Positions 30,687-36,906 of a stretch of 64,000 nucleotides of DNA are shown here, one piece after another. A program made the translations under genes and the position numbers. The DNA comes from an uncultured delta proteobacterium (GTDB lineage: Bacteria; Desulfobacterota; Binatia; UBA9968): contig CAVXEP010000015.1 of assembly GCA_963760795.1 (NCBI GenBank), positions 32,001 through 96,000 of the forward strand, read 5' to 3'. The notes beneath the pieces are model-generated. The model worked only from the letters and a program-made list of their open reading frames with translations, was not told where the DNA came from and searched no databases. How positions within the stretch are numbered: the stretch's first letter is position 1; the number at the start of each line of letters is the position of its first letter.

Positions 30687-33091
<2,405 letters not shown>

Positions 33092-33786: not shown

Positions 33787-34630
33787 TCACTTGGCGAGCT
33801 TGGAACCCTTGAGATCGAGCGCCAGCTTATAGACTTCCTTCTTCGCCAGTCCGTAGCGCTCACCGAGCAACTCCGCGATCTCCTTCACGCCCATGCCGGT
33901 GCCGGCGAGTTGGCGGATCGTCCCGTGCAGTTCCTCGTCGGACACCCGCGCCTCGCCGCTGGTGCCATGAACCATAATCACGATTTCGCCTTTAATGTCG
34001 CGGTCGGCGAGCGCGCGAACAACTTCGCTTAGCTTGCCGCGTCGGAACTCTTCGTGAACCTTGGTCAGCTCGCGGGCCACAGCGATCTCCCGGTCGCCGA
34101 AGATCTTGAGCATTTCGGCGAGCGAGTCCAAGAGCCGGTGCGGCGCCTCGTAAAAAACCAATGTCGCCGACTGCGTCGCGCAGGCTTTGCAATTTGGTTT
34201 TTCGCTCCTGGGTCCTGGCCGGCAGAAAACCTTCGAACAAGAAGCGGTCCGTCGGCAAACCGCTGGCACTGAGCGCCGTGGTCAATGCCGATGCGCCGGG
34301 CAACGGAACGACCTGAATCCCGGCCTGAATCGCATCGACGACAATGCGATAACCCGGATCGGAAATCGCCGGCGTGCCGGCGTCGGACACTAGCGCGATG
34401 CTGGCGCCGCTCTTCAGGCGCTCCACCAGAGTCCGTGCTTTGCCGCGTTCGTTATGGTCGTGATAGCTGGTCAGCGCCGTATTGATGCCAAAGTGCGCGA
34501 GCAAGTGCTGCGTGTGCCGGGTGTCCTCTGCGGCGATCAATTCGACTTCTTTGAGAACCCGCAGCGCGCGCAAAGTGATGTCTTCGAGATTGCCGATGGG
34601 AGTTGGAACGATGTAGAGGGTCCCGGCCAT
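33787..34630 (-). CDS. rsmI: 16S rRNA C1402 2'-O-methyltransferase; frameshift at ~34174
   Basis: [32 protein letters not shown], then FYEAPHR and [10 protein letters not shown] in the second frame. Confidence 0.93.
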
Positions 34631-34716: not shown

Positions 34717-35539
34717 TCATTTCCCCCAGTCTCTAGAATAGCGGAAGTCGCGGTCGATGGTGCGCTGCGACACCTTGGCGATCACCGGCAGGCGCCGTTT
34801 GAATTGGGAATTCATGATCCGCGCGGCGATGTCGTCGATGAAGCGTTCGGGAAATCCCGCTGGCGACCAGCTCAGCTTTGGTGTAGCGCTGGTCGACCAT
34901 CAAGTAGAGCAGCTTGTCTACTTCGCGGTAGGTAAAACCCAACTCACCCTCGTCGGTCTGGCCGCTCCACAGATCCGCCGACGGCTCTTTCTGGACGATG
35001 ACTTGGGGCACGCCGATCGCCTCGGAGAGCGCCCACACTTGGGTCTTGTAGAGATCGCCCAGCGGATTGATCGCCGACGCCGTGTCGCCGTGCAGCGTAC
35101 CATAGCCCAACAAAAGTTCGGTCTTGTTGCTGGTGCCGAGAACTAAAGCGCTCCAGCGCATCGATTGGTCATAAAGAATCGTCATGCGCTCGCGCGCCAT
35201 CTTGTTGCCACGCCGGCGCGCGTCGGCATCGGGGAAGCCAGCAAAATAACCGTCGATCTGCGCCGTGATCTCGACCAACATCGACTCGATACCGCTTTTT
35301 TGCACGACCATTTCGGCATGGGCCCGGCTATCCGAATTGGAGCTCTTGTAAGGCATCAAGACGCCCAATACGTTTTGCCGCCCTAGAGCCTCAGCAGCCA
35401 ACATCGCGCTCAGCGCCGAATCCACCCCGCCGGAAAGACCGACCACCACGCGCGCCAGCCCGGTCTTGCGCACTTCATTGCGAATAAAAGCGACGAGAAT
35501 CTGGCGCAGCAAAGCAGCGTTGGTCGGTATTTGCGTCAT
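34717..35539 (-). CDS. nadE: NAD+ synthetase, synthetase subunit; frameshift at ~34857
   Basis: [29 protein letters not shown]; the corrected tail reads [28 protein letters not shown]. Confidence 0.93.
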
Positions 35540-36462: not shown

Positions 36463-36530
36463 GGGAAAATCTCCGTCTGCGAGCCAGCTAGAAATAAATT
36501 CTCACGAAACTAACATAGGCCTAACCACAC

Positions 36531-36559
36531 TTGCAATTTCCCCCAGTCGCGCTTACCTT
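36531..36559 (+). promoter_or_regulatory. Putative sigma70 promoter for the selenoprotein/amgK-murU unit
   Basis: TTGCAA-17 bp-TACCTT. Confidence 0.45.
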
Positions 36560-36607
36560 GATTGTATCGACGAAACCAAGCGTAACCGGCCATCCAGCCG
36601 CAAAACC

Positions 36608-36832
36608 ATGGCAGAAAACGTTACTATTTACGGCCAAGATCTGTGAGCTTTTACTTCGGGAGCCCGTGCGGACTTCACCCGGCGCAAAGTGCCATTCGAG
36701 TATGTCAACGTCTTGGAAGACGGCGCCGGCCTTGAGCGCATGAGACAGCTCACCAATGGCCGGCGCAAGATTCCGGTGATCGTCCAAGACGGTAAGGTCA
36801 GCGTCGGCTTCGGCGGCACCTGAGAAGTCTGA
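36608..36832 (+). CDS. Glutaredoxin-like di-selenoprotein (UXX-star type), 74 aa with Sec at codons 13 and 72
   Basis: MAENVTIYGQDL-U-AFTSGARADFTRRKVPFEYVNVLEDGAGLERMRQLTNGRRKIPVIVQDGKVSVGFGGT-U-EV*. UGA at 36644 sits at the glutaredoxin active-site position and UGA at 36821 precedes two codons and a stop. Confidence 0.88.
36659..36676 (+). promoter_or_regulatory. Candidate bacterial SECIS for UGA-1
   Basis: GGAG-C-CC[GUGC]GG-A-CUUC, 12 nt after the UGA, loop beginning GU. Confidence 0.55.
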
Positions 36833-36834
36833 AC

Positions 36835-36851
36835 TGCCGGCGGTGTCGGCA
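36835..36851 (+). promoter_or_regulatory. Candidate bacterial SECIS for UGA-2 (in the 3' UTR)
   Basis: UGCCGGC[GGU]GUCGGCA, starting 11 nt after the UGA, loop beginning G. Confidence 0.65.
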
Positions 36852-36906
36852 CCAATACGAGAGCGCCCAGGCGAAAATTACCCTTAGCCAAACTCCAAAT
36901 CCACCC

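Follow-up and report, generated by a model that had tools for sequence, protein, structure and literature searches.

The window analyzed here is a 64,000-nt stretch of DNA from an uncultured delta proteobacterium, and its forward strand carries at positions 36608..36832 a coding sequence of 74 amino acids that we assign to UXX-star selenoprotein family 1. The sequence starts with ATG 36608 and, under translation table 11, is broken by a TGA at 36644..36646; if TGA is read as selenocysteine (Sec, U), the frame extends to 74 codons. This first TGA (codon 13) occupies the first position of a U-x-x-T motif, and a second in-frame TGA (codon 72, 36821..36823) places Sec at the third residue from the C-terminus. 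Codon 72 is followed by GAA GTC and then by a third TGA (36830..36832), which is the true stop and lies 6 nt past the preceding Sec UGA and 2 nt before a hairpin in the 3' UTR (36835..36851). The gene thus contains three UGAs inside 190 nt, two of which are assigned to Sec and one to termination. The product has no Cys; it displays U-A-F-T where a CxxC motif would lie, has I-P-V at the cis-Pro position and ends with GFGG-T-U-E-V. This layout, which the original prediction had drawn from ATG 36608 through both in-frame TGAs to the GGT-U-E-V-stop end, proved accurate to the base. Judged from its sequence, this is a small glutaredoxin-like gene that decodes two UGAs as selenocysteine, and its frame had been read correctly.

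On one side, the gene is flanked by a divergent pair encoding a CN-hydrolase and an NAD synthase, and downstream lies a pair encoding an APH-family kinase and an NTP-transferase, which fits amgK-murU. The window's genus and genus g5 share this arrangement of neighbors. None of the four neighbors was present at eight loci of genus g3, and at the one g3 locus that was examined for its surroundings, the gene adjoins an HlyD-type efflux adaptor and an ORF without a Pfam family. Because the arrangement is absent in g3, the position of the gene reflects lineage synteny and says little about function. The place ahead of amgK-murU, to which the original prediction had drawn attention, carries no signal across lineages, as it is restricted to the window's genus and a neighboring genus. 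Among the loci inspected, we found no conserved neighbor that hints at a redox partner.

Three minus-strand genes of the window showed irregular frames. An RsmI-like methyltransferase, recognized by eye at 33787-34630, is spread over two ORFs (33992-34630 and 33787-34269) that overlap in different frames, the first of which has an Arg/Pro-rich tail; the pattern suggests a frameshift or an indel in the assembly, in line with an earlier remark that indel errors occur in this DNA. An RRM-type RNA-binding protein, likewise recognized by eye (32722-33091), appears in two frames, with the N-terminal part at 32768-33091 and the rest at 32722-33015. The NAD synthase ORF (34733-35539) has 268 residues, of which its Pfam profile matches none beyond residue 234 (profile positions 5-225 of 242), and the last ~30 residues look out of frame, which may represent another indel.

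We compared the 74-residue protein with profile models of known families. The NCBIfam equivalog model NF041114.2, 'UXX-star selenoprotein family 1', which includes the U-x-x end, matched residues 5-74 over all of its positions (1-70 of 70) with 98.6 bits against a cut-off of 72, and the broader Uxx-star subfamily model NF041212 was also passed (84.2 versus 66). The name UXX-star given in the original prediction was therefore right. In contrast, the models NF041211, NF047338 and NF045501 gave 52.2, 45.4 and 54.7 bits, under their cut-offs of 100, 97 and 325, respectively. UXX-star families 2 and 3 and the HUGP/GUXX-star fusion share with the window protein the same small glutaredoxin-like fold and the same U-x-x end, but the protein scored under the cut-offs of all three. 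Furthermore, the names of these three families carry '(seleno)', which we read as indicating that Cys forms exist, whereas in family 1 no Cys72 was present among 51 sequences. The Pfam model PF00462 (Glutaredoxin) matched with 37.3 bits, and the classical glutaredoxin and NrdH models of NCBIfam yielded 18-36 bits against cut-offs of 85-131, so that none was passed; for example, TIGR02181, TIGR02194, TIGR02196 and TIGR02200 gave 25-36 bits against cut-offs of 85-90. A classical dithiol glutaredoxin or NrdH was ruled out because the motif is UxxT rather than CxxC and because these scores lie below the cut-offs.

The family is already on record. Table 1 of the 2026 review of the prokaryotic selenoproteome lists 'Distant Grx-like protein 1', which corresponds to the NF041114 family, with the motif UxxT and two Sec residues, and describes UXX-star family 2 as having one Sec and the motif GxGU. 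In its passages on these proteins, the review suggests that the Sec residues of family 1 may bind metals or have unknown substrates, cites the 2008 GOS paper for this family and refers to Haft and Tolstoy 2025 (mSystems) for other UXX-star families. The passages of the 2008 GOS paper that were searched do not name family 1, and the main text of the BSepDB paper does not mention it. Accordingly, the description of the gene as a 'hidden' selenoprotein was not sustained: the family is curated, the review tabulates it with two Sec residues, and the two-Sec architecture is documented, so that the reading was correct without being a discovery. The window protein shares with family 1 the full-length match, the U-x-x-T motif, the two Sec residues and the C-terminal U-x-x-stop, and shows no substantive difference from it; the window's clade adds TGA as a stop codon (10/51).

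We next considered whether the genome is able to decode these codons. The assembly comprises 35 contigs (6.58 Mb; 88.9% complete) and contains selA (531 bits), selB (410 bits) and selD (379 bits), all over their cut-offs and clustered on a contig outside the window (G000:C11:1948-7292; loci L001, L003 and L010), as well as a tRNA-SeC with the anticodon tca on contig C13. The Sec machinery that the original prediction presupposed is thus entirely present. In selD, a TGA occurs in frame close to the N-terminal end (…AAGU AAK…), with a GGUC-CGGGC-GACC hairpin downstream of it, which indicates that SelD is itself a selenoprotein in this genome; this hairpin resembles those of the two-Sec gene. In addition, two ORFs with a thioredoxin fold contain one in-frame TGA at the active site followed by a hairpin (L015, G000:C34:24696-24887, …LPG-U-GPC…; L016, G000:C32:474038-474208, …SHT-U-PYA…), and these are probably further selenoproteins of the genome.

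The possibility that no selenoprotein exists here, and that the TGAs are assembly errors or marks of a pseudogene in an indel-bearing assembly, draws on the frameshifted appearance of neighboring genes in the window. However, short-read contigs from three independent studies of soil metagenomes span the gene in full, with an identity of 95-99% or better, both TGAs unchanged and no indels; the differences fall at 36694, 36700, 36723, 36796, 36835 and 36854. The concern that raw reads might show TGC or TGG at these sites was thereby answered to the extent that sequence data allow. Moreover, TGA recurs at these two codons in relatives with 53-96% identity, and the Sec machinery is complete, which together leave this explanation with a negligible probability. 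Contigs from a metatranscriptomic library also cover 36486-36660 and 36747-36894, including both UGAs, and these may derive from DNA carry-over. We consider it almost certain that the gene is an ordinary member of UXX-star family 1 in which both UGAs are decoded as Sec by the genome's own SelA, SelB, SelD and tRNA-Sec.

The family model, when read through stop codons, scored over its cut-off in 36 of 41 related genomes, including the window's own; by family, matches were found in 24/24 (f1), 11/11 (f3) and 2/5 (f2). Nearly every related genome also contained a second, weaker match (~29-44 bits, positions 1-64; for example, G000:C2:76746-76934); nearly all of these were stop-free, and they appear to represent a Cys-containing glutaredoxin-like paralogue without the U-x-x end. 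We aligned 27 homologues of the window protein and found them to be 53-96% identical to it with no indels; the original prediction had held that the frame is kept across both UGAs, unlike at the indel errors elsewhere. At 30 loci, codon 72 was TGA in all cases (30/30), and codon 13 was TGA in 24 and TGC or TGT in 6; with the window included, residue 72 was U in 31/31, and position 13 was U in 25 and C in 6. One of these 30 relatives (L028) comes from a genome flagged as unpublished; it contributes a single row to these counts and to the alignment, and no conclusion hinges on it.

We further scanned 185,579 species genomes with two patterns that demanded Cys at either codon 13 or codon 72 and could accordingly retrieve Cys forms only. 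The scan returned 26 confirmed loci, six of which duplicate earlier ones; all 26 combined Cys13 with TGA72, and none was a Cys72 form. In the resulting set of 51 distinct sequences, codon 72 was TGA in 51/51, and codon 13 was TGA in 25 and a Cys codon (TGC/TGT) in 26, with nothing else observed. The 25:26 ratio of Sec13 to Cys13 is biased by the Cys-only scan, which supplied 20 of the 26 Cys forms; the unbiased ratio is 25:6. As for the expectation that homologues should have Cys or Sec at both sites, position 13 indeed takes only U or C, and position 72 takes only U. A tree built without codons 13 and 72 required seven switches between Sec and Cys at position 13, at least four of which were forced by well-supported branches.

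These homologues also bear on an alternative in which only UGA13 encodes Sec, whereas UGA72 is a real stop that yields a mono-selenoprotein of 71 residues, and the following hairpin is a terminator or another 3' element. UGA72 is indeed only three codons from the end, and the hairpin is GC-rich, lies in the 3' UTR and resembles a terminator. Nevertheless, codons 73-74 are conserved as protein: codon 74 encodes Val in 30/31 sequences with four synonymous codons in use, and such free synonymous variation indicates that the frame beyond the UGAs is under protein-level selection. A stop occurs exactly two codons past UGA72 in 51/51 sequences (TAG in 31, TAA in 10 and TGA in 10), while the distance from the stop to the stem varies. 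In the window, there is no U-tract 3' of the stem. Furthermore, a loop beginning with G[GU] lies 15-19 nt past UGA72 in 48/51 sequences, at the same distance as in the internal element, and the curated NF041114 model includes the U-x-x end (positions 1-70 of 70). Termination at UGA72 is therefore very improbable, and comparison of the sequences indicates that UGA72 is decoded and is not the stop.

A bacterial SECIS element typically consists of a stem-loop that begins ~11 nt after the UGA and has a G in its apical loop at a fixed distance, according to the consensus used for bSECISearch. In the gene described here, each UGA would be served by its own downstream stem-loop, namely an internal one for codon 13 and one in the 3' UTR for codon 72. 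The latter (36835..36851) is a 7-bp stem, UGCCGGC/GUCGGCA, in which 36835-36841 pairs with 36845-36851 around the loop GGU (36842-36844); it starts 11 nt past UGA72 and 2 nt past the stop. The spacing claimed earlier for SECIS-like hairpins was reproduced at both sites; the internal apical loop GUGC begins 19 nt past UGA13. The UGA that acts as the stop lies so near the stem that the stem cannot serve it, as expected of a distance-dependent SECIS.

We evaluated the hairpin after UGA72 both by folding energy and by comparison. Taken alone, it was within chance relative to dinucleotide shuffles (MFE z = -1.26), and minimum free energy folding of a 60-nt window favored longer-range pairing over the conserved hairpin. 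Two chance-level matches far below the gathering scores were obtained from Rfam, with no SECIS family among them. However, a loop-anchored search identified a stem of 4-8 bp at this place in 51/51 homologues with a spacer of 8-14 nt, and a loop of 3-4 nt starting with G[GU] at 15-19 nt past the UGA was present in 48/51 homologues, compared with 83/2040 mononucleotide shuffles; this procedure, which selects the best hairpin in each sequence, favors a positive outcome, a bias that the shuffle control addresses. Different pair types were observed at stem levels 2 (GC/AU/GU), 3 (GC/CG), 5 (CG/GC) and 7 (UA/GC/CG), consistent with compensatory change; for example, the loop-anchored count gave 39 GC and 11 CG at one level and 38 CG and 11 GC at another. 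A column-wise count on a MAFFT alignment was weaker than the loop-anchored count, with 77.2% of the cells paired and three of seven pairs changed on both sides. In that alignment, the g3 sequences are shifted by one column, an error that a covariance model did not correct on re-alignment; the counts stayed unchanged, and we therefore used the loop-anchored count. Thus, it is the comparison of homologous sequences that suggests hairpins in excess of chance. In environmental contigs from four runs, G replaces T at 36835 and breaks the outermost U-A pair of this hairpin, which is also the least conserved pair among the homologues.

The candidate internal SECIS (36656..36682) lies within the coding region, where bacterial SECIS elements are usually weak. 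Its lower stem pairs 36656-36660 with 36678-36682, its upper pairs are 36661/36674, 36662/36673, 36664/36671 and 36665/36670, and its apical loop GUGC occupies 36666-36669. We compared its stability with that of randomized sequences and found no excess relative to dinucleotide shuffles (MFE z = +1.16). Relative to synonymous recodings with the codon usage of the genome, there was likewise no excess stability in this region for the 25 Sec13 forms (mean z = -0.39; window, +0.46), and the six Cys13 forms, with a mean z of -0.94, folded at least as well as the Sec13 forms. RNAalifold, applied to the ungapped region, returned a consensus of only 2 bp, and the register differs between clades. Nevertheless, nearly every Sec13 form adopts a predicted two-part stem-loop whose apical loop (CGGGA, GUGA or GUGC) is situated 18-19 nt past the UGA, and the lower stem is compensatory between clades (CGGGA/UCCCG, CGAGU/ACUCG, GCGAGC/GCUCGC and CGGGC/GCCCG), with the encoded residues also changed.

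A further indication comes from the synonymous sites of codons 17-23, which are unusually uniform, and this uniformity is tied to the presence of TGA13. Ala19 is encoded by GCC in 25/25 Sec13 forms and in 20/26 Cys13 forms; Arg20 is encoded by CGG or CGT, and never by CGC, in the same proportions (25/25 versus 20/26); and Asp22 is encoded by GAC in 12/12 Sec13 forms compared with 12/21 Cys13 forms. The corresponding Fisher tests gave P values of ~0.02, 0.02 and 0.01, which are uncorrected for phylogeny and were obtained with 20 of the 26 Cys forms drawn from the Cys-only scan. On the basis of the folds and the synonymous-site pattern, we read the internal element as a real but weak candidate SECIS.

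To place the two Sec residues in a structure, we modeled the protein with AlphaFold2 from 28 homologues. The model (mean pLDDT 86.9) has the order beta-alpha-beta-alpha-beta-beta, and the predicted fold is that of a glutaredoxin minus the last helix. A Foldseek search yielded 12 PDB matches at E <= 0.001, all of which were glutaredoxins, with NrdH just below this threshold; the match to 3ic4, for example, had an E value of 1.1e-4 and a TM score of 0.79. Together with the PF00462 match, these results bear out the glutaredoxin fold of the original prediction. A sequence profile search of the PDB placed U13 opposite the first Cys, and T16 opposite the second Cys, of the CPHC motif of Clostridium Grx1 (7c10/7c12), and T16 was invariant in the 28 aligned sequences. 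The dithiol proteins cGrx1 (7c10), A. fulgidus Grx-1 (3ic4) and E. coli NrdH (1h75) have the same fold as the model (TM 0.74-0.79), and what they have in common with it includes the placement of position 13 on the N-terminal active-site Cys, the cis-Pro and the GF/GG turn. The window protein differs from them in having Thr in place of the resolving Cys and a three-residue Sec tail in place of the C-terminal helix; Sec-containing glutaredoxins with the motif UxxC are a near system alongside these dithiol proteins.

These features suggest how the protein might work. Sec13 would occupy the nucleophilic position of the CxxC motif, with Thr16 in place of the resolving Cys, and Sec72, the only other chalcogen, would be carried by a free tail of three residues, two positions beyond the conserved GG turn. 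If the tail enters the glutathione groove and thereby brings Sec72 to Sec13, Sec72 could act as the second redox partner, and the protein would alternate between its diselenol state and one with an Se-Se bond inside the molecule, or an S-Se bond in the Cys13 forms. Under this mechanism, the protein would be a low-potential electron shuttle that is independent of glutathione. A Sec13-Sec72 diselenide is plausible, and we give an Se-Se couple of this kind about an even chance of being the actual mechanism; a search of the literature for diselenides in bacterial glutaredoxin-like selenoproteins found nothing. The explanation as a whole, that is, a two-Sec protein of family 1 for which an Se-Se mechanism is proposed, is very probably right.

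As the main alternative, the two selenolates could together bind a soft metal or metalloid (Hg, As, Cu or Cd) with high affinity, in which case the protein would be a chaperone or scavenger and no redox shuttle. Such a role would agree with the HlyD-type efflux adaptor next to the g3 gene, with a protein devoid of any Cys and with the mention of metal binding for this family in the passage of the 2026 review on family 1. However, no metal-resistance operon was found at any of the 30 loci inspected, and the neighbors in the window's lineage are the NAD synthase/CN-hydrolase and APH kinase/NTP-transferase pairs. Both the fold and the placement of U13 correspond to a nucleophile in redox catalysis. 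Moreover, almost all genomes of the lineage (36/41) have the gene, in a single copy, which gives it the appearance of a housekeeping rather than a resistance function. We therefore regard metal binding as unlikely.

With regard to the redox mechanism, the distribution of Sec among the homologues suggests a division of roles. Because the tail Sec is invariant and position 13 toggles between Sec and Cys, we take the tail Sec as the reactive end that meets the substrate, which suggests that Sec72 is the indispensable reactive center. Glutaredoxins bind the cysteine of glutathione through backbone hydrogen bonds of the residue that precedes the cis-Pro. DSSP analysis of the AlphaFold2 model assigned isolated short bridges at residues 72-73 and 54-55, the latter just before Pro56 (the cis-Pro), and we infer from the model that these two segments are bridge partners. 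Such pairing would fit a tail aligned with the strand on which glutaredoxins hold the cysteine of glutathione. It is possible, though we hold it only tentatively, that the T/S-U-x-x tail provides the protein with its own selenium counterpart of the glutathione cysteine and bonds with residue 13, so that the tail Sec attacks and residue 13 resolves.

A Sec tail that cooperates with a thioredoxin-fold site has a counterpart in animals. The thioredoxin reductase and thioredoxin-glutathione reductase of animals are large flavoenzymes with a C-terminal Gly-Cys-Sec-Gly tail, in which Sec is paired with the adjacent Cys. Their likeness to the protein described here lies in a Sec near the C-terminus, a flexible tail and the exchange of electrons with a thioredoxin-fold active site, and the glutaredoxin domain of a thioredoxin-glutathione reductase was among the PDB sequence matches (5w1j, E = 7.5e-4). 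In contrast to those enzymes, the window protein combines the tail and the glutaredoxin site in one chain of 74 residues, the tail Sec and its partner are 59 residues apart, and the SECIS is of the bacterial type. If the reading of the tail as a glutathione analogue is true, the roles would be the reverse of those usually assigned in the thioredoxin fold, and the protein would constitute a self-contained, glutathione-independent redox module. In that case, the family would be a one-domain bacterial counterpart of the relay between the Sec tail and the glutaredoxin domain of thioredoxin-glutathione reductase.

For the organisms concerned, the value of these results lies in annotation. Standard gene callers cut the gene at codon 13, and as a result it is missing from the MAG annotations of the lineage, in which the records of the relatives are labeled Candidatus Binatia or Deltaproteobacteria; the family model recovers it in most of the related genomes. 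Its three UGAs also provide a compact natural case that is convenient for analyzing how the distance to a SECIS sets the meaning of a UGA. With respect to the family, the constancy of Sec72 and the Sec-Cys toggle at position 13 offer a usable clue to function, while the known kind of protein to which the gene belongs remains unchanged.
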